The position numbers and the translations under genes were made by a program. Positions 4,513 through 47,774 of a stretch of 61,488 bases of DNA are shown piece by piece. The notes under the pieces are model-generated. The model was given only the letters and a program-made list of their open reading frames with translations, had not been told where the DNA came from and did no database searches. This DNA comes from a virus (taxonomy: Duplodnaviria; Heunggongvirae; Uroviricota; Caudoviricetes). The DNA lies in the IMG/VR virus record IMGVR_UViG_2908567220_000003; one strand, given 5' to 3'. The stretch's first letter is position 1, and every line of letters begins with the position of its first letter.

Positions 4513-7500
4513 TCAGCTAATCGTGATACCTGCTGTGGATTTCTTCATCACCACAACCAGCAAATCACTGATACTGGCTGTGGGATACCAGTCATTTACC
4601 AGCCACGCTGATACCGAAAACTCCAGCGTCATGTGACCGCGACCAGCAGGCATATCAATAACACCTGTATAAACCAGCGTATTATCCAGCGCGGTACGGT
4701 TATAAATTTCAGCACCGTTTTTCTTCACTATCAGGCGGCATGACGAATAAATATCGTTATTCTCCCGCTCATGTTTAGCGCCACGAAACGCCACCGCGGG
4801 AATAACAATCTGCCGGTCAAACGGCTGATCGTCATAAACCCTGACGGTAATGGTCCCTGATGGCCACCGCTCCGGTGCACGGGAGTCCCGGGGGAAAGCT
4901 TTGCCCACTGTTTTAACGAGATCGCCTTCAATCTGGTTCGCAGACAGTTTTCCCAGAACCCGACAGTTTTCATTTATCGTGACATTGTTGAGCGTCCCGG
5001 CGTTCGCATTCACACTGCCACTGATATCCGCATTTTTCGCCGTCAGTCGCCCGTCCGGTGTAAGGGAAAATGCAGGAGGATTACCGCCGCTGGTAATGGT
5101 GGGAGCCGTCAGATATTTCAGGAACACGTCGTTCATGAATATCTGATCACCCTGACCAACAAACATCGGCTTTGTGTTGCCATTCGCAGGATTAATCATC
5201 GCAATCCTGTCTGCCGCCAGTAGCACCTGACTCTGCATTCCTGCTGGCGTATTCTCAATACCGGCACCGATACCCGCAATATAAAGGCGTCCGTCCTGCA
5301 TCTGCTGCAGTTTCACGGCCCACATGCTGTTCAGGTTATTATTTGTATCAACCTGAACCTTCTGTATCTGCTGGATCGCTGCACTCTGGTCTTCCAGTTT
5401 CTTATTGACGGTCTGTGTGATTTCATTGCTGACATCCGTAATGGATGTCCTGATTTCAGCCAGGTCAGGCGCAAGCTGACCGTTATCAATCTGCGTCCAC
5501 AGCTCCTGAGCCAGATGGGTTTTCCCTATCTCGCCTTTGAAAAAATCCAGATAGCCGGATGCGTCATCACTCGGCTGACCAACAGCCTCCACGAATGCCG
5601 ATTTGCCAACGGTGTTCACACTGCGAACGTAAAAATAATAATTATGGCCCGGTTTGATATTGATACTGGCGGCTATCCAGTACAACGCCGTACCAAGATA
5701 GCGTGCTGTGGTTTCAACCTGCCTGATATCCGCAATCCGCTTTTCCGAGAACCAGAACTCAAACTGTACCGTCGGATCATAAACCGCAAGATGCGGCGTG
5801 GCGGTTATCTGAAAATAGCCCGGCGTCAGCTCAATCCGCGACGGCGCTGCCGGTGCGGCAATCCGGAACGATACCGACGCCGGATCGCCCTGCTGCCCCC
5901 ACGCATTTACTGCCCGGACTGTCAGCCTGTAGTTCCCCAGAGCCAGTTGTGTGAAGCGGTAAGTGGTTTCCGTCGTCCGGGCCGTGCTGACCAGCCGCTC
6001 ACTGCCGTCATCCGCTGCCACGGTCAGGCGAAGCAGGAAGCTCACGCCCTTCACCACCTTCGGCGTGTCCCAGCGGGCCAGCACCTGGTATTCCCCGCTG
6101 TCTGCGGTGACTTCTGCGGTCAGATGCTGCACTGCTGGCGGCGTGACACCATTCACCGTGCCGCTCTGGTCGCCGTCAAAGTGCGTCCCGTTATCCACGA
6201 TGGCCTCTTTTTCCGGTACATGCTGCACGGCAGTGATGGCATACGTGCCGTCATCGTTCTCACGGATACTCACGCAGCGGAACAGGCGCTGGCGCAGCGT
6301 CGGCAGCTTCAGCCCCCATACGCTGTATCCGGCAATGCCGTCAGGAACACGGCTCACTTTCACCTTCACGCCGTCGGTGACGGACTGGACCTCCACGCTG
6401 ACCGGATTGCCACTTCCGTCAACCAGGCTTATCAGCGTGGTACCGGAGGATGGCAGCGTGATTTCACGGTCGAGCGTCAGCGTCCGTGTCTGGCTGTTTA
6501 CCGCCAGCACGCGCCCGCCGGTGCTGATACCGGCATAGTCATCATCGCAGATTTCAATGACATCGCCCGGTACATGGCGAAGCCCTTCAGCACCCACGCT
6601 GAAGTCCACGGTCTGCGTCTCCAGCAGCTCCGTTTTAATCAGCCACAGCCCGGCGCGGTGTGCCTGCCCCCGGCTGGTACAGCCAAAGGCATCCATCTTC
6701 GTAACATTACGACCGTAACGGGCAATGGCCTGCGTATCTTCAACAAGCTCTGTCGCCGTCTCCCAGCCGTTATCCGGGTCAATCCAGTTCACCTCAACGG
6801 CATTATGGCGGTCTTTCAGGGCGCTGAAGCTGTAGCGGAACGGCGCGCCATCATCCGGCATCACCACATTACTGCGGTTATAGGTCCACGCCTTATCCGA
6901 CGGCCGGTCCTGCACGAACGTCAGCGTCTGCCCGTTCCATACCGGCATACAGCGCATCGCCGAGCAGAAATCACTGAGCACATCCCACGCCTTGCGCTGT
7001 GTGGTCAGGTACGCATTACAGGTGATGCGCGGCTCCGTGCCGCCAAAGCCGTCCGGCACTGACTGGTCGCAGTACTGGCCGATGACATACAGCGCCCATT
7101 TATCCACATCCGCCGCACCAAGACGTTTCCCCATGCCGTAGCGCGGATGGGTCAGCATATCCCACAGACACCAGGCCATGTTGTTGCTGTATGCCGGTTT
7201 AAACGTTCCGTCCCAGATACCGCTGTATTGCCGCGTCTGCGGGTTATAGTTCGACGGCACCTGCAGAATACGCCCGCGCAGATGATAATTACGGCTCACC
7301 TGCTGGCTGCCGAACTGCTCCGAGTCCACCTGCACGCCGACCAGTGCCGTGTTCGGGTAGCACTGTTTCACATCGATAATTTCGGTGTATGACGACCAGA
7401 GCGTTTTGTTCTGCAGCTGGTCTGTGGTGCTGTCCGGCGTCATCCTGCGCATCCGGATACTGAACGGGCGCGGCGGCAGGTTATCCACCACCACCGAGGC

Positions 7501-25935: not shown

Positions 25936-27105
25936 CTAGCCAGCTTTCATTTCCAGAATTTTGATGGCGTTTGAATCCACCACACCACCGCCCAGATATT
26001 TATCCGTGTGGACCTTGTAGAATCCGGGTTCAGTAATGTTGTCCGGTCGGGTGCGAATCCCTGTTACATGATCAACGATGAAATAACCACGACTGAAATC
26101 GCCAACCGCTAGCGGTGCTTTTCCTGCGCCGATGTCCGGCATGGACTCCAGGCAGAAAACAGGACGACCAAGCAACATATCCGGCGCACCTTCTTTAAGG
26201 CTGTCGCGCCAGATATAATCGCCATTCTCATTTTTCAGCTTCTGTAGTGTCCCTGCCGTGCCCGAGTTCATCACCCAGACGGCATTTTTGCGGTATTTCG
26301 CTTTCAGCTTGTAGAGAATGTCGATCAGTTCGTCCGCTGTAATGGCGGTTCCACTTGCCGCTACCACTTTTTCAATGGTGCCAAAAGCGCGGGTTTTGTC
26401 ACTGGTCGCCGCACGGGTGTAAGCCATGAAGCCTTTCGGCTTGCCGTTACCGTCGCCATTAACAAAATCATCCTCTTCGGTGCTGGCGAACGTGTCGGCA
26501 ATTTCGGAGGATAACCAGCCCAGAATATCCACCTCTGAAAAATCCAGGATTTCCTGCGTGGTTTTCGGGTAGGCGTAGATCGGATTCAGCTTGATGGTTA
26601 CACGTTCAATTTTCGGGGTGTTGGTTTCACTACGTGCGCTGCCTTCTGTGCCTCGTCCTACAGTTGCGCCGCCAGTGGAAACCAGTTTCTGAAACTCATT
26701 TGATTTTGCGGTCTTCACGGTCGCGATCACGCGCATAACACTGTCATCCTGTAGCTGGCGCATGACTTCGCGATCAAGCTCAGGAATTACGGTATATCCG
26801 CCATCCCTGCCGCTGTCAGTGCTGGTGGTCAGTGATCGCACATCTCCGGTTACGATGTAGTTACGCAATTCATCAGATGATAATTTCTGGATGCCCGTTC
26901 CTGGCTTGCTGCGTTCTTCATCAGCCACAGACTCGAGGCGGGAAATTTCTGTGTCGAGGGAATCGGCTTTTGCACGCAGTTCATCAAACTGTTTGCCCTC
27001 GTCATCGTTCAGGCTGCGGTTTTCACTGTCGGCTTTTTCCAGCAGGGATCGCATCTGGTTTTTCAGGGCGGTTTTTTGCTGGCGGAGTTCGATTAATTTC
27101 TTCAT
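25936..27105 (-). CDS. major capsid protein, HK97 family (satellite copy)
   Basis: 389-aa ORF with coiled-coil delta domain; ATG verified; paralog of 16633..17850. Confidence 0.85.
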   Translation of the reverse strand: MKKLIELRQQKTALKNQMRSLLEKADSENRSLNDDEGKQFDELRAKADSLDTEISRLESVADEERSKPGTGIQKLSSDELRNYIVTGDVRSLTTSTDSGRDGGYTVIPELDREVMRQLQDDSVMRVIATVKTAKSNEFQKLVSTGGATVGRGTEGSARSETNTPKIERVTIKLNPIYAYPKTTQEILDFSEVDILGWLSSEIADTFASTEEDDFVNGDGNGKPKGFMAYTRAATSDKTRAFGTIEKVVAASGTAITADELIDILYKLKAKYRKNAVWVMNSGTAGTLQKLKNENGDYIWRDSLKEGAPDMLLGRPVFCLESMPDIGAGKAPLAVGDFSRGYFIVDHVTGIRTRPDNITEPGFYKVHTDKYLGGGVVDSNAIKILEMKAG

Positions 27106-27391
27106 GAAGGTTTTCTCGTATTGGTTAAGATTCAGGACGTGAAACCAACACGGAGGGAGCGCCGCCCGACACTCTCGGCATCTCGCAGATCAACCCGGCA
27201 TCGCGCAGGGGGTCAGGCGGCATTGTGGCGGCTCACGTCTGAGTGCCACACGCCAACATATACATAAAAATCAGTATGTAAACACCTGTCAGTAAGGCCG
27301 AACAACCACGAAAAAACACGAACAAATAATTTACAAAAGAAGTAAACCATGGCCTATTATTGCTACCTCTGACTACAACAAAGGACGCATC

Positions 27392-27898
27392 ATGAATTTA
27401 AGCGCAATGGTATACCCTGATACTTTCATAATTAATGGCGAATCATTTAAAGGTAAAAGAAACGCAAAAGAAAACAAGGTATTAATTCCATATACAAATG
27501 AACCGGAAGTAACTATTGGTCAACACATTATCCAGTGTGTCGGTAAAAACGAGATAAATCTAAAAATTATAGATATGAAGTTGCTTCCCAATGGAACCCT
27601 CAGACAGGGAACCAACCATCCAAATATGTTGACGCTCTATATTGAAAATATCACGGGAAATGAACATATGACGCCACCTAAAAGTAATACATTTAACATT
27701 GGTTCAATTAGTGGTAATCAAGTGCAGATAGGTGAGCATAACCATATGCTGGTAAACATCAGCATCACTGAACTGGTTGAAAAAGTCTCTAAATCGGGGG
27801 ATGTACAAGCCAAATCAGTATTAAAGCAGTTACTGGAAAACAGTACCGTTGCCAGCATTGTTGGGGCTGGCGCAAGTGCCTTAATAGGCTTACTGTAA
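27392..27898 (+). CDS. hypothetical protein with C-terminal hydrophobic tail (satellite accessory gene)
   Basis: 168-aa ORF, ATG with AAAGGA RBS, AT-rich, opposite strand to the rest of the element. Confidence 0.5.
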   Translation: MNLSAMVYPDTFIINGESFKGKRNAKENKVLIPYTNEPEVTIGQHIIQCVGKNEINLKIIDMKLLPNGTLRQGTNHPNMLTLYIENITGNEHMTPPKSNTFNIGSISGNQVQIGEHNHMLVNISITELVEKVSKSGDVQAKSVLKQLLENSTVASIVGAGASALIGLL

Positions 27899-27904
27899 AA
27901 AAAT

Positions 27905-27924
27905 GGCCTGGATTTTACCAGGCC
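27905..27924. terminator. bidirectional Rho-independent terminator between convergent genes
   Basis: stem GGCCTGG / CCAGGCC with 6-nt loop, flanked by A7 upstream and T-rich downstream. Confidence 0.6.
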
Positions 27925-27933
27925 TTTATCATT

Positions 27934-28182
27934 TTACCGTTTCACGGGATCCCGCATTCTGCTTCTTAGTTTCCACAGGTATTCGATCATCGCTTCCACC
28001 TGCTCACGGTTGGTTGCGAAAATTTCCCCGGTCAGTGAGCTGCGCAGAAAATCATGATGATCCACAACAAACAACGCATCGGAAGAAAGCAGACGGCGAT
28101 ATTTTTTTGCTGTCGTGGTTTCCAGATCATCAAAACCATGAAACTTTTTATGTTGCTGAACTTCTTCAAATGTCACAGGCAT
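27934..28182 (-). CDS. hypothetical protein
   Basis: ATG at 28182 with AGGAGG RBS inside track ORF 27934..28221. Confidence 0.5.
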   Translation of the reverse strand: MPVTFEEVQQHKKFHGFDDLETTTAKKYRRLLSSDALFVVDHHDFLRSSLTGEIFATNREQVEAMIEYLWKLRSRMRDPVKR

Positions 28183-28227
28183 GTTTCCTCCTGCTACCAC
28201 GATACCAGAAACAGTTAACAACCGTTA

Positions 28228-28512
28228 TCAATTATCCCCTTTTTTTTTCGGGTAGTTCCTGAACATCTCACCGCCAGGTTTCTGTAAGCCCATCCCGGTA
28301 TGTGTGCGGTTTATGGCCTCTTTCAGTATTCCGAAATTATCCGGTATGACTGGTTGGCGCGCTGCCTTACGGATACATTCCGCGCGACGCTTTGCCACCT
28401 GTTCGCGCTCCTTGTCAGTGCTCACCAGCCACATAACATCAGCCCAACGTGCCGCCGCTCTCCGGTACAGCCCTTTAGCCTCCAGTTCTTCCGCTTTGCT
28501 GTCTTTAATCAT
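28228..28512 (-). CDS. PerC-family transcriptional activator-like protein
   Basis: ATG at 28512 (MIKDSKAEELEAKGLYRRAAARW); assignment from remembered PerC N-terminal motif. Confidence 0.5.
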   Translation of the reverse strand: MIKDSKAEELEAKGLYRRAAARWADVMWLVSTDKEREQVAKRRAECIRKAARQPVIPDNFGILKEAINRTHTGMGLQKPGGEMFRNYPKKKGDN

Positions 28513-28527
28513 GCTGTACCTCACTGC

Positions 28528-28953
28528 TTAAAACGGTATCCCGTCCCCGTACGGATCATCGTGCTGGCCTGTCTGTTGTTTTGCCCTGTTCAGTGCGTCA
28601 GTAGCCTGGCCCTGCTGGCCTTTTTTGCCGCCCGGTCGCGCCGTTCGCGCACTGATTACGCTGTCTGCGATGACCTGCCAGCCCTGCCGCATTTCGCCGT
28701 TCTGGCCTGTCCACTGGCTTACCTGCATGTTACCCGCCACACTCACCAGTTCGCCTTTCTGGTGTTTTGCCAGTGCATCGGCCTGTCTGCCAAACGCCAG
28801 GACGGATAACCACATCGTCGCCGTTCCGTCATCTGCCTGGCTGCACGGCAGGGGAACCGCCATACTCGCCATAGCCATTTGTGTCCCCTTGCTGGTGGTC
28901 TTTAACTGCGGGTCAGCCACCAGCCGCCCGTAAGCCGCTATCTGTGCTGTCAT
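28528..28953 (-). CDS. ssb: single-stranded DNA-binding protein (SSB-like OB fold with C-terminal DIPF tip)
   Basis: 141-aa ORF ending GDGIPF, Gly/Gln-rich linker; ATG verified. Confidence 0.65.
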   Translation of the reverse strand: MTAQIAAYGRLVADPQLKTTSKGTQMAMASMAVPLPCSQADDGTATMWLSVLAFGRQADALAKHQKGELVSVAGNMQVSQWTGQNGEMRQGWQVIADSVISARTARPGGKKGQQGQATDALNRAKQQTGQHDDPYGDGIPF

Positions 28954-29017
28954 GCTGTCTGTTCTCCGGTTTTAACGTTGATTGTTACGCTTGTTTACAC
29001 CCTTACGGTGAAATCCT

Positions 29018-29140
29018 GCGGGTTATAATCGCACTTTTGCGGGTTATAACTGCCGTTTTGCGGGTTACGTGCGGGTTACTGATTTCCTTTTTATTCATAC
29101 AGTTAATGCACTTATACACAGGATAACCCGCATAACCCGC
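29018..29140. repeat. iteron cluster 2 (candidate replication origin): four direct GCGGGTTA(T/C) repeats, AT-rich spacer, two inverted copies
   Basis: direct copies at 29018, 29039, 29060, 29071; AT-rich 29081..29120; inverted ATAACCCGC at 29123 and 29132; downstream of primase/helicase gene. Confidence 0.7.
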
Positions 29141-29163
29141 AACTTTTCACCTCACACAGGGGG

Positions 29164-31284
29164 TTAATCTTCTGCCTCAGGCTGGAACATCAGCACGTAA
29201 AAAACATGCTGCTTCCCCCCAATTTTGCCGAGCGCCTTTTTCTTGTAACGGCGATCGTTACCCGCTTCCAGCATTCCGGCAGCACTCAACGCGCGGGCAA
29301 AGTGAGACGGATTAAATCCCTGTGCTATCTCACCCTCAAATACATGCGGGAACGTGTAAAAACGGAACTCGTCATCTTCGTTTCTGATACTCCCCTTTCT
29401 GTATCCGGCAAGCTCTTTAATCGGTAAATCACGCTCGTCGGTGTTGGGCCACGGAAGGTATCTGCTGAATCCGAACGACGCTAAAAAAGCCTCTGCCTGT
29501 TCAACCATCTGTTTAAACTCCCTGTTACCCGTGCCGAACTCCTTCACCCAGGCATTAAAATTATGCTGAATGGCATCGCGGCACGCCTGAACATCCCAAC
29601 CAGTAATATGGACGGAAAGCACCAGCGCCGACTCCAGCATGGCGAATCGTTCCCCCACACGGTGAACCTGTTCGCCGTAACTCTCCGGTATCAGGTTGCG
29701 CCACCGTTCACGGCATGCCCTTACCGTATCCTTTGCCTCCTGCTGGTGGTCTGCCAGCCATTTAACCCATTCACGCCCCGCCGCCCCGTGATTTTCTGTC
29801 CAGGCATCCTTTAACGCGTCTGCGTGTGCCTTTCCGGTGCTGTATTCGTGAAACTGCGTGGCTTTTTCCATTGGCACGTTAAGCAGGCGGACAAGCTGCC
29901 CCGCCTTGACTTTTATCCCCTCCGTTTTGAGGAATGTCTCAACGTCCATTTCTCCGGTGCTGATTGCCACCGTGCGCCAGTGTTTGATCTCCCTGTTGCC
30001 GCCGTCCTTCGCCCCCTGTAATTTCCCCGAACCGTTAAACAGCGTATAAGCCGACGTGGACACTTCCCGCGCGTTTCCGGCCTGACCTATTTCATCCAGG
30101 GGTAATAGCCCGTCATTGTGCGCCTCTGCCTCGTTGGCGATGCCTAACGCTGTACCGTACCAGGTCAGCCGTTGCGCGTCCGGCTCTCCCCATAAACTGG
30201 ATGCGATGTTCTGTGTGGTGGTTTTCCCTGCCGATGACTGTTCGAAAAGATGTACCCCGAAGCCGTCAGCACCCACCAGCCCGATTAATGGTGCGGATAA
30301 CGATACCGCCACACCCAGCATCATGGACGGATTACCACCAGCCAGCCGCGCAACGGTATCGCGCCAGCCCTCCGCCGTTCCTGCCACAGAATAGCCATTA
30401 ACGGCAGCCGTTTTTCCGGTAAACAGGATCGGTTTTTCAGACTCACCAATGACTGAACCGTCCGGCATGATGTACGCACCAAAATGCCAGCCCGTTGTTG
30501 TGCTTAACTGCCATTCCTCATGGTTTCCGCTTAACTGCATCCAGTCAGCCAGGATAGCCCTGTATTTGCCGTTAGTTGTTACGTTAAGGCCGTGGTCTTT
30601 CAGCAACCGCCAGCCGTCACGGTCGCCAATGCCCCCGCACGGAACCGCCATTGTGATGACTTCATGGTTTGCGGGTTTCTTCCAGCGCATCACGCGGTAA
30701 TGCTCTTTGCCGATTGTCCCCGTTCCCAGTAGTTCAAGCGGGGAACATAACCACGTCTCAGGCCGGATAATTTCGCCTGACTGCTTGTCAACTTTGGGCG
30801 TTACCCAGAAAACACCATCGGCGCGACTTTCAACGCGGGGCTTTAATTCATCATCGCCCTGGCTTTCTGTGATTTTTTTCTTTAAGGGCAACACCAGACT
30901 TTCCCCGCGCTCGTATTCGTCTTTCAGCCGGGCAAGCTGCGGTGTCCAGTCCTCCAGTAGTTCACCGTTCTCGTCACAAAAACTGGCTTCCTTAACACCA
31001 GCCACTGCCAGCAGGGTTTCAATCTGTAACGCCTGTCTGTCATCCAGCTTTCCGGCACGTCTGACCATGGCGCGTAACCGTCCATCATCCACAATACGCA
31101 GGTTTTCCAGATTACCCAGGTCACGCCGCCCGAGATAAACAGGTGGTATTTTGTCGCCGCGCTTTCTGGCTTCTCCGCCCTGCATGTAATGCTCTGCGTG
31201 GCTGTATGCGTCATCCCCCGCAAAAATCACTGCATCCTCGCCTTTATCTTTCGGTAACAGTTTTACGTTCGGTGCCAGTTTCAT
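29164..31284 (-). CDS. replication primase/helicase (DUF927-type P-loop NTPase)
   Basis: 706-aa ORF with Walker A (SSAGKTTT); ATG verified; adjacent to iterons. Confidence 0.65.
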   Translation of the reverse strand: MKLAPNVKLLPKDKGEDAVIFAGDDAYSHAEHYMQGGEARKRGDKIPPVYLGRRDLGNLENLRIVDDGRLRAMVRRAGKLDDRQALQIETLLAVAGVKEASFCDENGELLEDWTPQLARLKDEYERGESLVLPLKKKITESQGDDELKPRVESRADGVFWVTPKVDKQSGEIIRPETWLCSPLELLGTGTIGKEHYRVMRWKKPANHEVITMAVPCGGIGDRDGWRLLKDHGLNVTTNGKYRAILADWMQLSGNHEEWQLSTTTGWHFGAYIMPDGSVIGESEKPILFTGKTAAVNGYSVAGTAEGWRDTVARLAGGNPSMMLGVAVSLSAPLIGLVGADGFGVHLFEQSSAGKTTTQNIASSLWGEPDAQRLTWYGTALGIANEAEAHNDGLLPLDEIGQAGNAREVSTSAYTLFNGSGKLQGAKDGGNREIKHWRTVAISTGEMDVETFLKTEGIKVKAGQLVRLLNVPMEKATQFHEYSTGKAHADALKDAWTENHGAAGREWVKWLADHQQEAKDTVRACRERWRNLIPESYGEQVHRVGERFAMLESALVLSVHITGWDVQACRDAIQHNFNAWVKEFGTGNREFKQMVEQAEAFLASFGFSRYLPWPNTDERDLPIKELAGYRKGSIRNEDDEFRFYTFPHVFEGEIAQGFNPSHFARALSAAGMLEAGNDRRYKKKALGKIGGKQHVFYVLMFQPEAED

Positions 31285-31580
31285 TTTTTACCTCTGGATG
31301 CGCTGAGCATGCTTTTTATTTTCTTAATATTTTCCCGTGCTTTTTCCCTGCTGGTGGGCTTACCGCGTGTTGCGTTCTGTACCAGAGAAAAATCACGCCG
31401 GAACTGATAAACAGGCATCACGCAGTCATAGCCGTACCCATCACGGCGGTAAGTAACGCACCGTCCCGCCACGCTTTTAATCGTTACCGTGCCGCCGTAG
31501 TTATCCCGGAAAATATCGCCGGGGCGGATTTCAGGCCGAGCGGGGCCGCTGGCAGTAAAGCCAGAAATTTTCTGTTTCAT
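31281..31580 (-). CDS. hypothetical protein
   Basis: 99-aa ORF, ATG verified, stop overlaps primase start. Confidence 0.4.
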   Translation of the reverse strand: MKQKISGFTASGPARPEIRPGDIFRDNYGGTVTIKSVAGRCVTYRRDGYGYDCVMPVYQFRRDFSLVQNATRGKPTSREKARENIKKIKSMLSASRGKK

Positions 31581-31585
31581 GGTTT

Positions 31586-31819
31586 TTATTTCCCGGTGTG
31601 TTGCTCTTTATATCTGTCGTGCAAGATGTCTATTTCTTGCAGTTCATTTATTACAGGCTCAAGAAGCGTTATTAATGCTGTTGCAATATTGCTGTTGCGT
31701 TTATCTCTTTCATTATCGCCAAGCGTTTCAAGCCATAAGCGCAATATTTCAAGCATGTTTTCACTGTAAGCAAGTGCGCTGTATGCATGATCTACTGTGT
31801 CATTGTAAATATCATGCAT
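31586..31819 (-). CDS. hypothetical protein
   Basis: 77-aa ORF, ATG verified. Confidence 0.4.
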   Translation of the reverse strand: MHDIYNDTVDHAYSALAYSENMLEILRLWLETLGDNERDKRNSNIATALITLLEPVINELQEIDILHDRYKEQHTGK

Positions 31820-31822
31820 GGC

Positions 31823-32023
31823 TCACCCCCCCTGAATATTCGCGTTAATCATTCCGACACGCTCTGCGAGTTCCTGTAATGATTCCCTTGTTGCGACAAT
31901 TGCTTCATCTGGCAGGTGGTAATTACTCACCACGCGACCTTTATCCACATTGACTAGCAACTGCCCGGTGAATTTCTCACGAAACTGGATGCGGTTAAGG
32001 TCGGTAAGTGACAGGTTAATCAT
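31823..32023 (-). CDS. hypothetical protein
   Basis: 66-aa ORF, ATG verified. Confidence 0.4.
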   Translation of the reverse strand: MINLSLTDLNRIQFREKFTGQLLVNVDKGRVVSNYHLPDEAIVATRESLQELAERVGMINANIQGG

Positions 32024-32219
32024 GGTGTACCCCCTGACGAATACGGGCGGCGAATACCATCACGCAGCCAGCCGGGGATTGCTGGCGTGCTTCCTGTTCG
32101 CTGGTGGCCTCAATGGTAATCACGCGCGGTTGTGCCGTGCTCAGGGCGATAAAACGCCAGATATATTTATTCAGGTTGTGCGAGTCCCGCCCTTGCGGGT
32201 GTGTGGTATGATTTCTCAT
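32016..32219 (-). CDS. hypothetical protein, first gene of leftward operon from the divergent control region
   Basis: ATG at 32219 with GAGGT RBS; only the 3-prime 67 codons of track ORF 32016..33089 are plausible. Confidence 0.4.
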   Translation of the reverse strand: MRNHTTHPQGRDSHNLNKYIWRFIALSTAQPRVITIEATSEQEARQQSPAGCVMVFAARIRQGVHHD

Positions 32220-32316
32220 AGCTACCTCGATACTCTTGCTATCGTTGGTGGTTAGACGCCCTGCATGTGTTGCGAGCACTGCGGGGCGTTGCTTAATTTG
32301 AGTGACAAAACTCAAA

Positions 32317-32395
32317 CTGTGCGCACAGATTAAAATCATGTGTGCGCACATGTCAATACTTAACATCTCATTTTTTTTGCTGTATTGTGTGCGCC
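32317..32395. promoter_or_regulatory. divergent promoter/operator region with TGTGCGCACA palindromes
   Basis: perfect 10-bp palindromes at 32319..32328 and 32341..32350 (23 bp centre to centre) plus TGTGTGCGCC half-site near 32386. Confidence 0.6.
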
Positions 32396-32424
32396 CATAA
32401 AGTCCATTTAAGTGAGGTGCATCA

Positions 32425-32622
32425 ATGTCTAGCGGTAACACAAACAACAAATCAGCAAAGAAAAATATTCGATTCCCACATGAGCTTATAGATGGGATTG
32501 ATGCCAGCGTTGAACAAGAAAAATTAACTAATCCTAGTGCTAATTTTTCCGCATGGGTCTTAGATGCCTGTGGACGCAAATTAAAATATGAACAGCGCCG
32601 GAAGGCCAAAGAATCAGAATAA
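32425..32622 (+). CDS. ribbon-helix-helix-type DNA-binding regulator (candidate satellite master repressor)
   Basis: 65-aa ORF, ATG with GTGAGGTG RBS; NIRFPHELIDGIDASVEQ pattern fits beta-strand plus helix of RHH fold. Confidence 0.45.
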   Translation: MSSGNTNNKSAKKNIRFPHELIDGIDASVEQEKLTNPSANFSAWVLDACGRKLKYEQRRKAKESE

Positions 32623-32664
32623 TCACTATCAGCGCCGTGGTGTGAGTAACTACGGCGCATTGCT

Positions 32665-32853
32665 ATGCAGGACAACACAATGACCGATAAAGAATTGACC
32701 AAAACATTATCACCGACACGGAAAAGACGGCGCAGAAAGATAGAGCATGAATCAGAAAGATTCGCACCTTGTTCGTTTGCTCTTGAGAAATTCCTTAAAG
32801 AGCGCAGGAAAAAGCTCTCGTTGCAAACCTTGGAACGAACCAAATCTGACTGA
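32665..32853 (+). CDS. hypothetical small basic protein
   Basis: 62-aa ORF, ATG verified; followed by GC hairpin and T-run. Confidence 0.35.
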   Translation: MQDNTMTDKELTKTLSPTRKRRRRKIEHESERFAPCSFALEKFLKERRKKLSLQTLERTKSD

Positions 32854-33233
32854 TCACATTGCCCACCAGCCGCAAATGTGGCATTGTTGGTGATGCTTTT
32901 GTTTTCCCTTGTTCCCACTGGCGACCCTTTTGCGGTCGCCTTTGTTTTGCCTGTTATCCGGCAATAGTGGCGCTTCGTCACCTGTCTGATATAATTCCAC
33001 AGCTTATATTCATTTTTTGCGCAGTAGGTTAATTGTTCGCAAGGGCGCTCCGGCAACGGGGCGCTTTTTGTTTTTACCCACCAGCACAATAAAAATCTTC
33101 ATTTTCCATTTTTGTAAAATTTCATGCTTTCCGGACGACTGGTCATATGTCATTTTTTAGCAGAAGATTTTGCCTTGCTGGTGGGTAGCTTCCCGGTCAA
33201 CACGATGTACCGTATAATCAACACCGCGTGTGG

Positions 33234-33812
33234 TTACTGAATACGCTCACCAAAGTAAAACTCAGGCTGGTATTCACGTATCAGCCTTTTTTCTTCTTCC
33301 TCCAGCTCACGCTTTTTGCGCTTACATGCCTGTAGCTCCCTCCCCTTCTCACTGGCACTTATCTGGTATTGCTCTTTGCGGCGGGAAAAATCCTGTAATG
33401 CGCCCCACGGGATACCATAAGCCCCCGTTTTTCTGATACCCGGTATCACATTTCTGAATACCCAGTTACTGAAACGATGAGCAAATGTGCCAGGCGTCGT
33501 TGCTTTGCGGCTGCGGGCTATTAGTTTGTAGAAACCTGATTCGGAGATAATGCTCATATTCTGATTTCCTCCGGGGGTGTAAGTTAAATTTACTCCCTTT
33601 TCGTCATCATCAAGCATCTGCAACGCCGTACGCGAATTGGTCAGTTCCAGCGCAGCACAAACATCCTTTGCAACAAACCACGGATCGCCGTTTAGATACA
33701 CCACACGAACATCCACGCCATCAAAGCGCAGAACGACCAGATCACGAATATCACAGAATTTTTTCACATGACGTGCGTCACCCTTGCCCGTCACGGCAAT
33801 ATTTTTATTCAT
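33234..33812 (-). CDS. Bro-N domain protein (antirepressor-like)
   Basis: 192-aa ORF with N-terminal Bro-N-like region and C-terminal charged coiled coil; ATG verified. Confidence 0.65.
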   Translation of the reverse strand: MNKNIAVTGKGDARHVKKFCDIRDLVVLRFDGVDVRVVYLNGDPWFVAKDVCAALELTNSRTALQMLDDDEKGVNLTYTPGGNQNMSIISESGFYKLIARSRKATTPGTFAHRFSNWVFRNVIPGIRKTGAYGIPWGALQDFSRRKEQYQISASEKGRELQACKRKKRELEEEEKRLIREYQPEFYFGERIQ

Positions 33813-33869
33813 TGCTTTTTACCTCACATACAAAAAACCCCGCATTGCGTGGTGCGGGGTTGTCGGTAA

Positions 33870-34148
33870 TTACTTATTGGCGTTTTTGTATGGGCTGTTT
33901 ACTTCCTTTACTCCTGGCGGATGCATAACCCACCAGAGCACATCAGAGAGCAACCAGGAAACAGACACTTTCCCTAAATGAGCACGAGCAGGAAATGCTC
34001 CCTCCTGTTCAAGTACCCAACGTCTGCTTCTTGAAAGCCCGGTACGATTGGCACACTCATGTTCGCGTATACGGCGATCATACGGTTCGCCATGATCTTT
34101 CAGAATCTGAATGCGTTCTTCGGGTGTAGGATAAATAAATTTTTGCAT
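33870..34148 (-). CDS. alpA: AlpA-family transcriptional regulator
   Basis: ATG at 34148 with AGGTGA RBS; motif GLSRSRRWVLEQEGAFPARAHLGKVSVSWLLSDV; downstream of integrase. Confidence 0.7.
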   Translation of the reverse strand: MQKFIYPTPEERIQILKDHGEPYDRRIREHECANRTGLSRSRRWVLEQEGAFPARAHLGKVSVSWLLSDVLWWVMHPPGVKEVNSPYKNANK

Positions 34149-34379
34149 AAAAATATCACCTATAAAAAAACCCGCCAAAAGACGGGTTGATTATATCTCA
34201 TTTAATTTAGCTCAGGGTTTCCATTCACCTTTTACCCATTCCAGCACCTCAGATAAGCGCCAGACTTTTGTTTGTGGGCCAATACATATTTTTCGTAACC
34301 GTCTCATTTAAACCGTCTTTCGCCTCCCTTTCCTGTTTCCGATACTAATGTCCATTTTCGCAGTAAAGGGACATTTAAG

Positions 34380-35030
34380 ATGAATGCACGAAAAGCGGTA
34401 CTGGCAGACAATCCGGAATTGATCCTGCGTGTGCTACAGCTGAGATTTGACGAGTCACTGTCGTACCCGCGCATTTCTGCGCAGACCGGTGTCAGCAAAA
34501 CCGCCATTTTTTCTCTGGTGAGGCGATTTCACCAGGTATTCACTGACTGGCCTCTTTCCGGTGAATATTCCTGCGGGCAACTGGCCCGGGCTCTTTTCCC
34601 GGGGCGATACCCTTCAGCCCCGACCGTGACTCAGCCTGTGAAAGCAGAGAAACCCCGCCGGAACCGATTTTCACCGGAGTTTAAATGGAGACTGGTTCAG
34701 CAAACTCTTTTACCCGGTGCCTGTGTCGCACAAATAGCTCGAGAGAATGGAATTAACGATAACCTGCTCTTTAACTGGCGGCATCTCTGGCGTAACGGTG
34801 GCCTGCAACCGCCCGGCGAACATGAAACATCGCTACTTCCCGTGACGTTAACTCCGGAGCCGGATAATAAAATCCCGGCACCAGTGCAGATACCTGAACA
34901 GATAAATACACTGCCAGACAGTCTGTGCTGCGAGCTGGTTCTGCCGGCCGGAACTCTCAGGCTGAAAGGTGAACTGACACCGGCGTTATTACAGACACTT
35001 ATCCGCGAAATGAAAGGGAGCAGCCACTGA
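34380..35030 (+). CDS. IS66-family accessory protein (orf1, HTH)
   Basis: 216-aa ORF, first of three in the IS. Confidence 0.7.
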   Translation: MNARKAVLADNPELILRVLQLRFDESLSYPRISAQTGVSKTAIFSLVRRFHQVFTDWPLSGEYSCGQLARALFPGRYPSAPTVTQPVKAEKPRRNRFSPEFKWRLVQQTLLPGACVAQIARENGINDNLLFNWRHLWRNGGLQPPGEHETSLLPVTLTPEPDNKIPAPVQIPEQINTLPDSLCCELVLPAGTLRLKGELTPALLQTLIREMKGSSH

Positions 35031-35377
35031 TGATATCTCTCCCTGCCGGTTCGCGTATCTGGCTGGTTGCCGGTATCACCGATATGCGAAATGGCTTTAA
35101 CGGCCTGGCCTCAAAAGTTCAGAACGTCCTGAAGGATGACCCGTTCTCCGGGCATCTGTTCATCTTCCGCGGACGCCGGGGTGACCAGATAAAAGTGCTG
35201 TGGGCTGACAGTGACGGACTGTGCCTCTTCACCAAACGCCTGGAGCGGGGCCGCTTCGTCTGGCCGGTCACCCGCGATGGAAAGGTTCACCTTACTCCGG
35301 CTCAGTTGTCCATGCTTCTCGAAGGCATCGACTGGAAGCACCCGAAACGAACGGAACGCGCTGGCATCCGCATATAA
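35030..35377 (+). CDS. tnpB: IS66-family TnpB (orf2)
   Basis: 115-aa ORF, ATGA overlap with orf1, typical IS66 orf2 size and sequence. Confidence 0.8.
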   Translation: MISLPAGSRIWLVAGITDMRNGFNGLASKVQNVLKDDPFSGHLFIFRGRRGDQIKVLWADSDGLCLFTKRLERGRFVWPVTRDGKVHLTPAQLSMLLEGIDWKHPKRTERAGIRI

Positions 35378-35396
35378 CCCGTTGTAAAGTGAGGAT

Positions 35397-36968
35397 ATGG
35401 ACACCTCACTTGCTCATGAGAATGCCCGCCTGCGGGCACTGTTGCAGACGCAACAGGACACCATCCGCCAGATGGCGAAATACAACCGCCTGCTCTCACA
35501 GCGGGTGGCGGCTTATGCTTCCGAAATCAACCGGCTGAAGGCGCTGGTTGCGAAACTGCAGCGCATGCAGTTCGGTAAAAGCTCAGAAAAACTTCGCGCT
35601 AAAACCGAACGGCAGATACAGGAAGCCCAGGAGCGAATCAGCGCACTTCAGGAAGAAATGGCGGAAACGCTGGATGAGCAATATGACCCGGTACTGCCAT
35701 CCGCCCTGCGCCAGTCTTCAGCCCGTAAGCCGTTACCGGCCTCACTTCCCCGTGAAACCCGGGTCATCCGGCCGGAAGAGGAATGCTGCCCGGCCTGTGG
35801 TGGTGACCTCAGTCCTCTGGGGTGTGATGTGTCAGAGCAACTGGAGCTTATCAGCAGCGCTTTTAAGGTTATCGAAACACAACGTCCGAAACTGGCCTGT
35901 TGCCGGTGCGACCATATCGTGCAGGCACCAGTACCTTCAAAACCCATTGCACGCAGTTATGCCGGAGCGGGGCTTCTGGCTCATATCGTCACCGGGAAGT
36001 ATGCAGACCATCTGCCGTTATACCGCCAGTCAGAAATATACCTTCGTCAGGGCGTGGAACTGAGCCGCGCCACGCTGGGGCGCTGGACCGGTGCCGTTGC
36101 TGAACTGCTGGAGCCGCTGTATGACGTGCTGCGCCAGTATGTGCTGATGCCCGGTAAAGTCCATGCGGATGATATCCCCGTTCCGGTCCAGGAGCCGGGC
36201 AGTGGTAAAACAAGAACTGCCCGGCTGTGGGTCTATGTCCGTGATGACCGTAACGCCGGTTCACAGATGCCCCCGGCGGTCTGGTTCGCGTACAGCCCGG
36301 ACCGGAAAGGTATCCATCCACAGAATCACCTGGCCGGTTACAGCGGTGTGCTTCAGGCAGATGCTTACGGTGGTTACCGGGCGTTATACGAATCCGGCAG
36401 AATAACGGAAGCCGCGTGTATGGCCCATGCCCGGAGAAAAATCCACGATGTGCATGCAAGAGTGCCAACCGACATCACCACGGAAGCCCTGCAGCGTATC
36501 GGTGAACTGTATGTCATCGAGGCAGAAGTCCGGGGATGTTCAGCAGAACAGCGTCTGGCAGCAAGAAAAGCCAGAGCGGCTCCACTGATGCAGTCACTGT
36601 ATGACTGGATACAGGAACAGATGAAAACACTGTCGCGTCACTCGGATACGGCAAAAGCGTTCGCATACCTGCTGAAACAGTGGGAGGCCCTGAACGTGTA
36701 CTGCAGTAATGGCTGGGTGGAAATCGACAACAACATCGCAGAGAACGCCTTACGGGGAGTGGCCGTAGGCCGGAAAAACTGGCTCTTCGCGGGTTCCGAC
36801 AGCGGTGGCGAACATGCGGCGGTGTTGTACTCGCTGATCGGCACATGCCGTCTGAACAATGTGGAACCAGAAAAATGGCTGCGTTACGTCATTGAGCATA
36901 TCCAGGATTGGCCGGCAAACCGGGTACGCGATCTGTTGCCCTGGAAAGTTGATCTGACCTCTCAGTAA
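35397..36968 (+). CDS. tnpC: IS66-family transposase (orf3)
   Basis: 523-aa ORF with leucine-zipper-like N-terminus and Cys-rich motif. Confidence 0.8.
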
Positions 36969-37122
36969 ATATCAATACGGTTCTGGCGAGCCGCTTACTA
37001 TTTTTCGTGGAAATTTTCCTTCCTTTTCAAGTAACGATCTGTGTCTCCTGCCAAGAGCGGTTAACCATGCACATTCATCTTCCTTAATCATCCTGTCGAT
37101 TGTTTCATCATTTTCAAGTTCT

Positions 37123-38346
37123 TCACGCGTAACTATTTGAATCATTACTGTCACCACTAATTTGCTTATTCAGATAGTCGTACCACCAGTTCATAGCTTC
37201 TTTTTTTCTGTCCATATACTGGCTTCTGTTATAAACCCCGGCAACACCGCCTAATGTGTGCCCAAGCAACTGTTCAACCACATTATGTTCAAAACCATGA
37301 TCACTTAGTTTTGTGGCAAACACTCTTCGCATATCATGCGCCGTCCATTTCTCCGAGTGTTTCATCCTTTTCCATGTCTTACCGATAGTTACGCTTGCCG
37401 TACACTGACGCATATCAAACCCAATCACATTTTCTTTGTTACCTGTTATTTTTTTTAACGTAACTAACCAGTTAAACATGCCATCAGGAATCGGTCTGAT
37501 TATTTCCCTGCCATTTTTGCTATGATCAGCGGGAACGCGCCATAATTTCTTATCAAAATCCCACTCTACCCAGGACGACAGTAATACTTCTGACAGTCGA
37601 CAACCAAAAACTACCAGGAAACGTAAAATAATTCGGTTTTCATATGATAATTCGTGATTGTCATAATCAGTATTAATACTTCGCCATAAATCTCTGATTT
37701 CATCATCTGTTAAAACCCTGCTTCTTCGCGCAGACTTTTTTCCCACATCACAGACCTCAAGATCATCAATTTCATGACTAATCGCGTATTTTCTTACCCT
37801 ACAAAATTTAAGCGCCTGTTTTGATATACGCAACAAAGCTCCGGCCTGTACAGGTGCTACTTTTTTTATTTTGTCAAAACACTTAATCCACATAGATATA
37901 GAGCAATCACTAAGTGGTACATGACCAATCACCGGATAAATATGTTTACCAAAGCACTGCCTGATATGTTCTGCTCCCCTACGCTTATCCATTGCATAAT
38001 TATCAAGCCAGTATTCAAGTGCCTCACGAACGGTAACAGGTTGCAAGGTGGCTTCCCGTTCAATTTTTATCTGAATCCGTGGATCTCTGCCCTCCGCAAG
38101 CCAAGTTCGACACTGATCGCGCATCTCTCTCGCTGATTTGAGACTCAGATCAGGATATTTTCCAAGTGTCAGCCAGATGGGCGCGGTTTCCCTTCCCGCC
38201 AGTCTGTAAAAGAAAACAAAACTAACACATCCGTATTTACTGACCCGTACCGAAAGCCCGTTACCATCAGCGATGGTTTCCTGCCTCTCACTCCTGCGTC
38301 CAAGCAGGGAACGAAGTTTTTTATCGCTCAGTTTGTTTAGCGCCAT
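37123..38346 (-). CDS. int: tyrosine integrase, P4-type (satellite)
   Basis: ATG at 38346 (MALNKLSDKKLRS) inside track ORF 37123..39546; C-terminal R..H..GH..Y catalytic pattern; adjacent to right junction. Confidence 0.85.
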   Translation of the reverse strand: MALNKLSDKKLRSLLGRRSERQETIADGNGLSVRVSKYGCVSFVFFYRLAGRETAPIWLTLGKYPDLSLKSAREMRDQCRTWLAEGRDPRIQIKIEREATLQPVTVREALEYWLDNYAMDKRRGAEHIRQCFGKHIYPVIGHVPLSDCSISMWIKCFDKIKKVAPVQAGALLRISKQALKFCRVRKYAISHEIDDLEVCDVGKKSARRSRVLTDDEIRDLWRSINTDYDNHELSYENRIILRFLVVFGCRLSEVLLSSWVEWDFDKKLWRVPADHSKNGREIIRPIPDGMFNWLVTLKKITGNKENVIGFDMRQCTASVTIGKTWKRMKHSEKWTAHDMRRVFATKLSDHGFEHNVVEQLLGHTLGGVAGVYNRSQYMDRKKEAMNWWYDYLNKQISGDSNDSNSYA

Positions 38347-38518
38347 GTGATTTATAACCCGTTTTTGCAATACACAGTGCAATACACAAATGATGAAAAC
38401 AGCCAGAACCTTCCAGAAAAAACAAAAACGACGAACAAGAAAAAAATCTTTTTCTTTCATTTGGTTACTAAAAAAATCAGGACAGGTCGCACTGTTGTTA
38501 CGGCGTGATGTTACTTTC

Positions 38519-39546
38519 TTGGTAAAAAAATTCACCCGCGCAGAGACCTGCTCCTTCGCTTTTTTCGCCAGACGACGCAGATCATCCCAGCGTTTACAGA
38601 TGCCCAGGCCAGGATTCGCTTTCTGCCAGACCGTTTCATCAAACGGATCATCTCCCTCATCGAGCGTGTAAATGATCGCAAAGTAGGAGTCGTCTTTTAC
38701 CGCGCCCTCCACGTCGCTGTTATAGCCTCGCAATACCTTAATGGCGTAATCGCGCTGCTCGTAGCAAATCCCTTCCTTGTTAAAGCCAGCCGTGGTGATG
38801 CCAAATAACAGAGACTGCAGACGGGCACCGGTTGCCGTTTCCAGAACGTCCCACACGTCACGGGTTTTATGAGCATGCAGCTCATCAATAATGGCACAGT
38901 GGATGTTCAGACCGTCCAGGTTGTTTGCATCCGAGGAAAGCGGTTCAAATTTTGATGCGCTCTGCTCCTGGTAAATCGCCAGCTTGTTGAAGTCAAACAA
39001 CCGCCCGAGTGTCGACCGGGCTTTTCTGACCATATTTTTGGCGTCTTCAAACACAATTCTGGCCTGGTCACGCGTGGTTGCGGCTGAATACACCTCAGCC
39101 CCGCCTTCACCATCTGCCCCCGTCATATACAGACCGATACCCGATGACAGGGTTGATTTTGCGTTTTTACGGGCAACTTCGTTGTATGCTGTCCGGAACC
39201 GGCGCACCATCACCGGGCGTCCACTGCCATCGCTGCGCATGACAACTTCCCCGGTTTCTTCATTCACCAGCGGAATGACAAAACCAAAAATATTAATGAG
39301 GATAAACACATGCCAGTCCATCAACTCAATGGGCTGACCTGCCAGCGCCCCTTTCACATGGGGTACAAATTTGTAGAAATTAAGGATGTGCTGTGCACGA
39401 GGTTCACTGAAATAAATCCCCCGCTCTTCGCCGTACTTCAGATCATCAAGAAAACGCTGGCAGGCCAGACGGACAAATTCGCCAGCAACAATTTCTCCTG
39501 CAACAACACGTTCGGCGTAGCGGATCCCGTCAGCCACTTTTGCCAT
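38519..39546 (-). pseudogene. terL: terminase large subunit, N-terminal (ATPase) fragment of the interrupted prophage terL
   Basis: first ~345 codons of track ORF 37123..39546 align to N-terminal half of TerL 21083..22744 up to the FFTKK motif; ATG overlaps terS stop. Confidence 0.8.
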
Positions 39547-40028
39547 CAGTCTCTCGCTTTTAAAAGCTCTGCCAGCGGATCAACATCATCCGGTCCGGCG
39601 GTATTTACTTTCGCCCGGCTTGCCGGTGACATACCAAACTCTGCAAGCATCGCCCGAATCCGCTTCCAGGCATCAGCCTTCATCGCAGCAGCCGGGTGTG
39701 CCTTGATCAGCACATCGCCATTCTGCGTTTCCGTGCGGTAGGTATAACCCTCAACATCGAGTATTTCGCAGTGATGCCGGTATTCGGTGTAGGCTTCCAC
39801 CAGTAACTCGAGCGCACGTGCATCGAGCTGAGAAATGATCCCTTCCGCATTCAGCTCTTCCGCCATTCGCCTGAACCAGTACTTCCCCTGCGCCCCTAAA
39901 TGTTGCGGAATTTTAGGGAGACATTTTTCATCCTTTTTAGCGGTTTTTTTTGGGTCTTTAACGGGGCGCTTTGAGGGGTTGCCTCGTATCAAATGCAGGC
40001 GTGGCGGGGTTTTCAGGGGTCCTGACAT
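39546..40028 (-). CDS. terS: terminase small subunit, P27 family (prophage copy)
   Basis: 160-aa ORF directly upstream of terL N-fragment; ATG verified. Confidence 0.75.
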   Translation of the reverse strand: MSGPLKTPPRLHLIRGNPSKRPVKDPKKTAKKDEKCLPKIPQHLGAQGKYWFRRMAEELNAEGIISQLDARALELLVEAYTEYRHHCEILDVEGYTYRTETQNGDVLIKAHPAAAMKADAWKRIRAMLAEFGMSPASRAKVNTAGPDDVDPLAELLKARD

Positions 40029-47659: not shown

Positions 47660-47774
47660 GTTACCTCCAGATCCGTTGCTGGAAAGTGCGTAACCGTCTC
47701 ATTTAAACCGTCTTTCGCCTCCCTTTCCTGTTTCCGATACTAATGTCCATTTTCGCAGTAAAGGGACATTTAAG

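Follow-up and report, generated by a model that had tools for sequence, protein, structure and literature searches.

The 61,488-nt stretch of DNA analyzed here (the window; IMG/VR virus record IMGVR_UViG_2908567220_000003, Caudoviricetes) carries a capsid-forming phage satellite whose on/off switch is most likely formed by a 65-residue gene of the YlcI/YnfO family and three short palindromic sites, O1 to O3, positioned between this gene and a divergently transcribed replication and packaging operon. We propose from sequence comparison that the gene encodes a satellite-borne, element-specific and autoregulated ribbon-helix-helix (RHH) repressor of that operon, acting through three matched operators, and assign this reading a probability of roughly 0.68. 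The repeated sites cover core elements of two divergent promoters, P_left and P_right, and are kept in relatives. The control region comprises the following features:

32425-32622, plus strand: ylcI-family gene (65 amino acids; RefSeq WP_000094457.1, named YlcI/YnfO family protein), predicted RHH repressor.
32318-32327 (12-mer frame 32317-32328): O1, perfect palindrome TGTGCGCACA, overlapping the -10/+1 region of P_left.
32341-32350 (12-mer frame 32340-32351): O2, perfect palindrome TGTGCGCACA, in the P_left spacer and abutting the -35.
32388-32397: O3, TGTGCGCCCA, a 9/10 match overlapping the -10/+1 region of the rightward (ylcI) promoter; proposed autoregulatory site.
32351-32356, minus strand: P_left -35, TTGACA, read from the sequence and directly adjoining O2.
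32327-32332, minus strand: candidate P_left -10, TAATCT, with an 18-nt spacer, read from the sequence.
32360-32388, plus strand: P_right, TTAACA-17 nt-TATTGT, promoter of the 65-residue gene, from a consensus scan.

A preliminary description of this region had noted two perfect 10-bp palindromes 23 bp apart, centre to centre, in a gap of about 200 bp between the leftward operon (starting at 32219) and the 65-residue gene (32425). Both palindromes are exact copies of TGTGCGCACA and the gap measures 205 bp; the third element, described as a half-site 40 bp nearer the rightward gene, is instead a full copy of the site with nine of ten bases matching, 47 bp from O2 (start to start). A repeat finder groups the three copies as 13-mers of a single family, spaced 23 and 47 bp apart. 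Exact TGTGCGCACA occurs only twice in 61 kb, where the chance expectation for the whole window is 0.07, and the sole other match with at most one mismatch lies at 59908, outside the element; within the element, we found no copy beyond O1-O3 at this stringency and no iteron-like array. The palindromic repeat array is real.

The candidate -10 hexamer of P_left runs into O1, which places O1 over the -10/+1 region, and with O2 in the spacer, protein bound at these two sites would exclude RNA polymerase from P_left. This -10 was not reported by the consensus promoter scan, and an alternative hexamer, TTTAAT, is found at 16 nt. On the opposite side of the region, O3 starts at the final base of the P_right -10. 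In the mechanism that we propose, YlcI dimers would bind the three related 10-12-bp sites, and occupation of both O1 and O2 would shut off the putatively strong P_left and with it the ~10-kb operon that runs from an Icd-like gene through the primase, SSB and PerC genes to the capsid and packaging genes. Binding at O3, which is often the most degenerate copy and lies on the repressor's own promoter, would provide negative autoregulation, and the differing pairs of protein arm and operator found among elements (see below) would constitute immunity types.

The 65-residue protein scores 59 bits against NCBIfam NF041551 (YlcI_YnfO_N; cut-off 30) and 28.3 bits against Pfam DUF3950 (PF13132; cut-off 25). 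In an alignment of 39 homologues, an invariant R-F-P precedes an amphipathic helix, which a short turn connects to a second helix with an invariant F-S-x-W-V. The AlphaFold2 model of the monomer (mean predicted local distance difference test score of 75.6) has an extended stretch at residues 14-18 followed by helices spanning 19-35 and 41-63, in line with the RHH-like pattern suggested in the preliminary description, and its best structural matches are nearly all RHH DNA-binding proteins. As in the MetJ/Arc/CopG class, an N-terminal strand and two helices fall within ~45 residues and superpose on solved domains. Curated RHH family profiles gave no threshold-level Pfam match among the 39 members; sub-threshold matches were to HicB_lk_antitox in eight of them (best E-value, 0.002) and to Arc, NikA-like, CopG_antitoxin and RHH_1 in one member each. 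Searches of the PDB with the protein sequence yielded chance-level matches or none, and with the profile, nothing. The model thus supports an RHH fold with good but not complete confidence. The family extends to phage lambda, which harbors an unannotated 54-residue homologue beside cos (locus L047; J02459.1 48142-48303, minus strand) that is 43% identical and scores 38 bits against NF041551.

To place the switch in the context of related elements, we scanned one genome per species and retrieved 45 loci (designated by the prefix L) encoding relatives of 42-82% identity, with 40 unique control regions. These loci are found in Serratia, Rahnella, Klebsiella, Pectobacterium, Enterobacter, Xenorhabdus, Brenneria, Pantoea, Proteus, Morganella, Arsenophonus, Gilliamella and Orbus; the module is distributed from Enterobacterales to Orbaceae. 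Every locus has two related 12-mers upstream of the gene, the second abutting GTCAA, and a third copy by a TAnnnT hexamer, which overlaps the start of O3 as the P_right -10 in 30 of 40 loci. The remaining geometry is conserved as follows:

O1-O2 spacing of 23 bp: 37/40 unique control regions.
O2-O3 spacing of 44-49 bp: 32/40 unique control regions.
-35 reading TTGAC: 37/40 unique control regions.
TAnnnT 18 nt downstream of the -35: 36/40 unique control regions.

Conservation of the palindromes in related elements, on which the preliminary description made its reading depend, is borne out. Elements of the same type in Rahnella, Klebsiella and Erwinia hold TGTGCGCACA at all three positions despite diverged flanks (a perfect copy occupies the O3 position in L007, L008, L010 and L033), and Xenorhabdus has a close variant; in an alignment of seven elements from six genera, O1, O2 and GTCAA stand out as invariant blocks and the rest is variable. 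Elsewhere, the site is replaced in place by other operator types (GTGCAyAwACAC, GTGTTTAAACAC, GTGTGnACCCAC, GTGCGGCCACAC, GTGTGTAGACAC and TGTCCGyACA), all of which share the frame (G)TG-N6-CA(C). The three sites within one element change in concert, which suggests that the element itself encodes the factor and that recognition differs from element to element. Serratia sp. Ag1 (L003/L006) and Xenorhabdus kozodoii (L028/L031) each harbor two elements, which are of different types, and of 5,426 complete E. coli genomes, 69 have the exact type characterized here, none of them more than once.

Loci with sufficiently long flanks have int (accompanied or not by alpA and bro) on one side of ylcI and the Icd-like/primase operon on the other; in several loci a convergent int lies directly 3' of ylcI, and capsid genes are present in some loci and not in others. 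The Icd-like gene was detected at the first leftward position in 14 of the 45 loci, and a shared N-terminal motif marks the start codon of the first leftward gene in a larger number of loci. Elements of the GTGTTTAAACAC type (L011, L016, L021, L022, L027 and L037) have an extra, fourth site between O2 and O3, and their O2-O3 distance is 70-71 bp. Two ylcI alleles are damaged, that of Erwinia tracheiphila (L033, 5950-6010) by a frameshift in an A-run and that of a Symbiopectobacterium metagenome-assembled genome (L038, ~5990-6010) by partial loss of the N-terminal arm, both perhaps cases of gene decay in host-restricted bacteria.

Operator type follows the nine residues just before the IRFP strand (the arm), and the residues at positions 12 and 14 sort with the sites in the following way:

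Positions 12 and 14 K and N: operator TGTGCGCACA.
Positions 12 and 14 T and G: operator GTGCAyAwACAC.
Positions 12 and 14 Y/F and G: TTTAAA cores.
Positions 12 and 14 K and H: ACCCAC cores.
Positions 12 and 14 R and D: operator TGTCCGyACA.

In a Mantel test, arm distance correlates with O2 distance with r=0.70 (p<=2e-4), and with r=0.63 once the remainder of the protein is controlled for; with the arm controlled for in turn, that remainder correlates with the operator at 0.08 (not significant). The arm codons lie only 37-85 bp from the sites, which makes linkage a concern; yet the arm correlates far more weakly with the DNA in between, at 0.20 (O2-O3 spacer) and 0.49 (5' untranslated region), and the partial correlations remain at 0.61-0.68. 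Two Gilliamella loci (L039 and L045) encode an identical 42-residue core but show five changes among the nine arm residues and four among 12 operator bases; conversely, proteins with only 50-57% core identity have a common arm and operator. In the RHH strand, alternate side chains face the DNA, as established for Arc and MetJ, and positions 12, 14 and the invariant R16 fit this alternation. We infer that specificity would reside in the N-terminal arm together with the first part of the β-strand (residues ~5-14), above all in positions 12 and 14 before R16. The covariation of arm and operator also gives indirect support to a predicted homodimer that would insert its paired strands into the major groove of the repeated sites.

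Over the left part of the region, the window matches E. coli 042 (NC_017626.1) at 99.97% identity, and further right at ~98%; the gene content of the element was taken from the RefSeq annotation of the 99.97%-identical region. The element spans ~18 kb, or ~15 kb once an IS66-family insertion sequence (IS), carried by the window and missing from reference 042, is subtracted. Its genes and borders include:

37123-38460, minus strand: int.
Between alpA and int, minus strand: small helix-turn-helix (HTH) gene, interrupted by the IS.
33870-34178, minus strand: alpA, with a Pfam Phage_AlpA match.
33234-33812, minus strand: Bro-N gene (bro).
32016-32219, minus strand: Icd-like gene, first of the leftward operon under P_left.
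19831-20556: C-terminal fragment of the prophage terL, at the left end of the element.

PHROGs class the Bro-N protein with antirepressors. As the preliminary description held, the leftward operon leads into replication and capsid genes; the annotation on the minus strand places three small open reading frames (ORFs), DUF4222, a DUF927 primase, SSB and PerC after the Icd-like gene, followed by the major capsid, prohead protease, portal, connector, HNH, TerS and TerL genes. The element combines int, alpA and primase with its own capsid, portal, protease and terminase genes, without tail or lysis genes, a gene set that matches a capsid-forming phage-inducible chromosomal island (cf-PICI; 10.1101/2022.09.08.507074). 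It splits the prophage terL into N- and C-terminal fragments, an insertion in a prophage late gene that corresponds to the helper-embedded PICI configuration of Tommasini et al. (PMC10111431). By gene content and position, the element is a helper-embedded cf-PICI in the prophage terL of an E. coli 042-like genome.

The same module is found in EcCICFT073 (NC_004431.1 1377930-1388654), the prototype of Gram-negative PICIs, where the gene order is int, alpA, an opposite-strand 57-residue ORF with a 59-residue YlcI/YnfO gene (C_RS30120), and Icd-like through to primase. Its YlcI is 34% identical to the window protein and scores 67 bits against NF041551. The control region (L051, 8243-9053) harbors GTGTGGCCCAC / GGTGTGGCCCAC sites, with GGTGTGGCCCAC present twice, 23 bp apart, the second copy abutting GTCAAG, and a third copy, CTGTCCCCCAC, located directly after TATACT on the ylcI promoter. 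Judging from their locus tags, the two small genes probably date from a later revision of the annotation. A classical PICI of O157:H7 F6321, inserted between clpS and cspD, has the module at 99.7% identity, and in the packaged cf-PICI record LR881103.1, ylcI is unannotated and a long ORF is annotated antisense over it (L048, 6997-7971), which would make the element look unidirectional. The module has probably been missed since the gene is small and, in at least this one annotated record, lies under a long antisense ORF; a mechanical ORF of this kind also crosses ylcI in the window (32016-33089, minus strand).

Between the operators and the Icd-like gene, we identified a second conserved structure that is consistent with an additional layer of control:

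32256-32299, plus strand: conserved hairpin (32256-32289) with a T-rich tail, a candidate plus-strand intrinsic terminator antisense to the icd leader.
32204-32212, plus strand: candidate extended -10, TGgTATGAT, read from the sequence, for an RNA of ~80 nt (roughly 32219-32299).

The hairpin sits between the start codon of the Icd-like gene and O1 and is kept in all loci, with compensatory changes in seven of the eight predicted pairs. About 42 of 256 hairpin cells are G·U pairs valid only on the plus strand, which become C·A mismatches on the operon strand, and an 81-mer folds with -38.7 kcal/mol (z=-5.4) on the plus strand versus -24.0 kcal/mol (z=-3.35) on the minus strand. These plus-only G·U pairs and the stronger plus-strand fold make the hairpin look like the terminator of a rightward antisense RNA; a terminator on the operon strand was rejected, given the C·A mismatches in the stem and the lack of a U tail there. 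The candidate -10 hexamer falls inside the first codons of the Icd-like gene, and in all 35 anchorable loci a TAnnnT is found at one of two offsets, 16 or 10, relative to the complement of the icd start codon as mapped, with varying encoded residues; in four of the loci with offset 10, the true start is a few bases away, and measured from there the hexamer would fall at offset 16. On these grounds, a cis-antisense RNA of ~80 nt that covers the start of the Icd-like gene and its Shine-Dalgarno sequence is plausible and, with its conserved terminator over the icd leader, is a candidate second layer of the switch. Such an RNA recalls sar in P22 immI and the c4 control of icd in P1. Rfam scans of 27000-40000 (E<=1) and 32150-32440 (E<=10) returned no C4 or IsrK and no credible family, and we dismissed a hit to R1162 antisense RNA (18 bits versus a gathering score of 55) and several miRNA hits as noise. 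We also rejected an assignment of the hairpin RNA to the AgvB/AsxR prophage anti-sRNAs, which lie at the lambdoid P_R' moron site (PMC4104026).

Other readings of these data must be weighed against the proposed repressor. The sites could be real operators bound by another factor (AlpA, the Icd-like protein, Bro-N, or a helper-phage or host protein), to which the 65-residue protein is unrelated. AlpA is the sole regulator demonstrated by experiment in Gram-negative PICIs (PMC6092414), the Icd-like families are termed "transcriptional repressor" in PHROGs, and Bro-N proteins are capable of DNA binding (PMC10111431). We nonetheless consider this unlikely: site sequences differ among elements of a single host and go with the YlcI arm, the location of the sites, in the core promoter and downstream of it, is not one at which activators bind, O3 is on the ylcI promoter itself, and neither AlpA nor Bro was detected in many loci that keep the sites. 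The Icd-like protein was rejected as the site-specific factor because Icd type does not follow operator type; the window element and L003/L004 have a common Icd type but different operators, whereas the window element and L007/L008 have a common operator but different Icd types.

That the protein binds the sites but serves DNA transactions, that is, packaging or cos recognition, excision directionality or replication, is in our view improbable. Family members do adjoin cos/nu1 in lambda and lambdoid prophages, and some RHH proteins, NikA among them, are accessory factors of DNA processing; a sub-threshold match to NikA was obtained. Against this, the geometry is fixed with respect to the -35 and -10 elements of two divergent promoters across 40 loci, there are three sites only in place of an iteron-like array, and the region is far from both the packaging genes of the element and the ori expected downstream of pri (PMC10111431). 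The YlcI family may have another role in true phages.

We regard it as very unlikely that the 65-residue protein, rather than acting as the satellite switch, is an RHH antitoxin paired with a small basic ORF as the toxin and confined to autoregulation of this two-gene operon. The features relevant to this reading are:

32665-32853, plus strand: small basic ORF 3' of ylcI, in the ylcI transcription unit (62 amino acids, or 57 from an MTDKEL start).
33041-33068, plus strand: terminator-like hairpin with a T run, at the end of the rightward unit.
32920-32940: second terminator-like site of the rightward unit.

A homologue of the basic ORF, C_RS30800, is found next to ylcI in EcCICFT073, though the two ylcI alleles have diverged to the extent given above; the ORF is missing from all 45 related loci and has no Pfam or NCBIfam match, its one match being a PHROG family without an assigned function. 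Two of the three sites lie on the promoter of the divergent operon, not on that of ylcI. Unlike RHH antitoxins and CopG-type autoregulators, YlcI has no conserved toxin partner in the 45 related loci, and its main target would be the divergent ~10-kb operon; a toxin-antitoxin assignment was rejected. Finally, chance or a sequence-composition artefact is a negligible explanation of the palindromes, since, although one of 100 shuffled windows had two or more exact copies somewhere, the copies here are adjacent, are joined by a third and recur at the same positions in other genera, a conservation that already refutes it.

Several points weigh against YlcI as the repressor of a tight switch. AlpA over-expression alone induces EcCICFT073, with no repressor reported (PMC6092414), and cf-PICIs reportedly package even without an inducing phage (10.1101/2025.02.11.637232), which together imply that repression would be leaky or bypassable. 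At 23 bp, the O1-O2 spacing deviates by about two bases from two helical turns, the Mantel tests leave some room for shared ancestry or linkage, and by eye no three-site array is found upstream of the lambda homologue.

As to how repression by YlcI would be lifted, we offer two guesses. AlpA-activated transcription of int-alpA-bro may read through leftward, antisense to ylcI and past the operators, a guess prompted by the absence of a leftward terminator before P_left: a scan found no minus-strand terminators between bro and P_left, and two of the terminator-like sites in this interval, one of them the strong hairpin at 33041-33068, work on the plus strand only. Alternatively, or in addition, the Bro-N antirepressor-like protein may inactivate the repressor. 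AlpA is required for induction of EcCICFT073 and EcCIEDL933 (PMC6092414; 10.1101/2022.09.08.507074); Gram-negative PICIs have been described as AlpA-activated, with the repressor of these elements called "unclear" in the 2018 paper (PMC6092414), and later work treats AlpA as the regulator. More broadly, and with somewhat less than even confidence, we suggest that YlcI/DUF3950 proteins could fill the place of the missing master repressor in Gram-negative PICIs and cf-PICIs, EcCICFT073 among them, forming heteroimmune groups by arm and operator, backed up by a cis-antisense RNA and overridden on helper infection by AlpA-driven read-through, Bro or both.

In its logic, the proposed switch is a classical repressor/operator switch that is, by analogy, closest to P22 immI. 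The latter comprises the RHH repressors Mnt and Arc, the divergent promoters P_ant and P_mnt and the antisense RNA sar. As in immI, a small RHH repressor would be encoded divergently from the repressed operon, with operators over core promoters, specificity set by an N-terminal arm and β-strand, and possibly an antisense RNA over the ribosome-binding site of the first gene. Unlike immI, there is no detectable sequence homology to Arc or Mnt beyond the single sub-threshold Arc match among 39 members, the three sites are separated (by 23 and 47 bp) where P22 has one compact operator, and the switch belongs to a satellite and controls replication and capsid genes, not an antirepressor. With lambda CI/Cro and OR1-OR3, the likenesses are three sites between divergent promoters, a weaker third site on the repressor's promoter and heteroimmune allelic pairs; the differences are an RHH rather than an HTH fold, no identified Cro counterpart and no SOS-cleavable domain. 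Stl, a larger protein, is of the helix-turn-helix type. Like Stl/Rpr of Staphylococcus aureus pathogenicity islands and Gram-positive PICIs (PMC6092414), ylcI lies between int and the replication operon, divergent from the latter, and occurs as element-specific alleles; unlike Stl, which is co-directional with int and is inactivated by binding of a helper-phage protein, YlcI is predicted to adopt an RHH fold and its gene converges on int. Immunity acting on an operon that starts with an Icd-like gene, with an RNA layer over the leader, is shared with the P4 CI RNA and P1 c4-icd-ant systems (Rfam C4/IsrK; PMC10111431), from which the present case differs in that neither family is matched, the candidate RNA is cis-antisense and not processed from the sense transcript, and the main repressor would be a protein.

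Literature searches, which left most subscription journals outside their scope, found no function for DUF3950, YlcI or YnfO, nothing relevant on a repressor of EcCICFT073 and no report of this repressor type in Gram-negative satellites, including that of E. coli CFT073, although a prior description is possible. The role of DUF3950, the presence of the module in Gram-negative PICIs and cf-PICIs, including the prototype, and the matched types of arm and operator therefore appear new. If the protein is the repressor, Gram-negative and Gram-positive PICIs run on the same logic, islands sort into immunity types that predict coexistence, and the switch can be tested directly with simple reporters. 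Engineered PICI "drones" would gain orthogonal small repressor/operator pairs, and a function would be provided for DUF3950, a family of the E. coli K-12 y-ome (ylcI, ynfO) that includes an unannotated ORF of lambda.

Two further features of the window concern its insertions. At the right end of the element, the N-terminal fragment of terL is in frame with int, giving a mechanical ORF of 807 residues (37123-39546). The window harbors two IS66-family copies (34297-36995 and ~47690-50394) with ORFs of 216, 115 and 523 residues, the first of which, not in RefSeq 042, breaks the small HTH gene between alpA and int, so that excision or induction of this satellite copy may be crippled.
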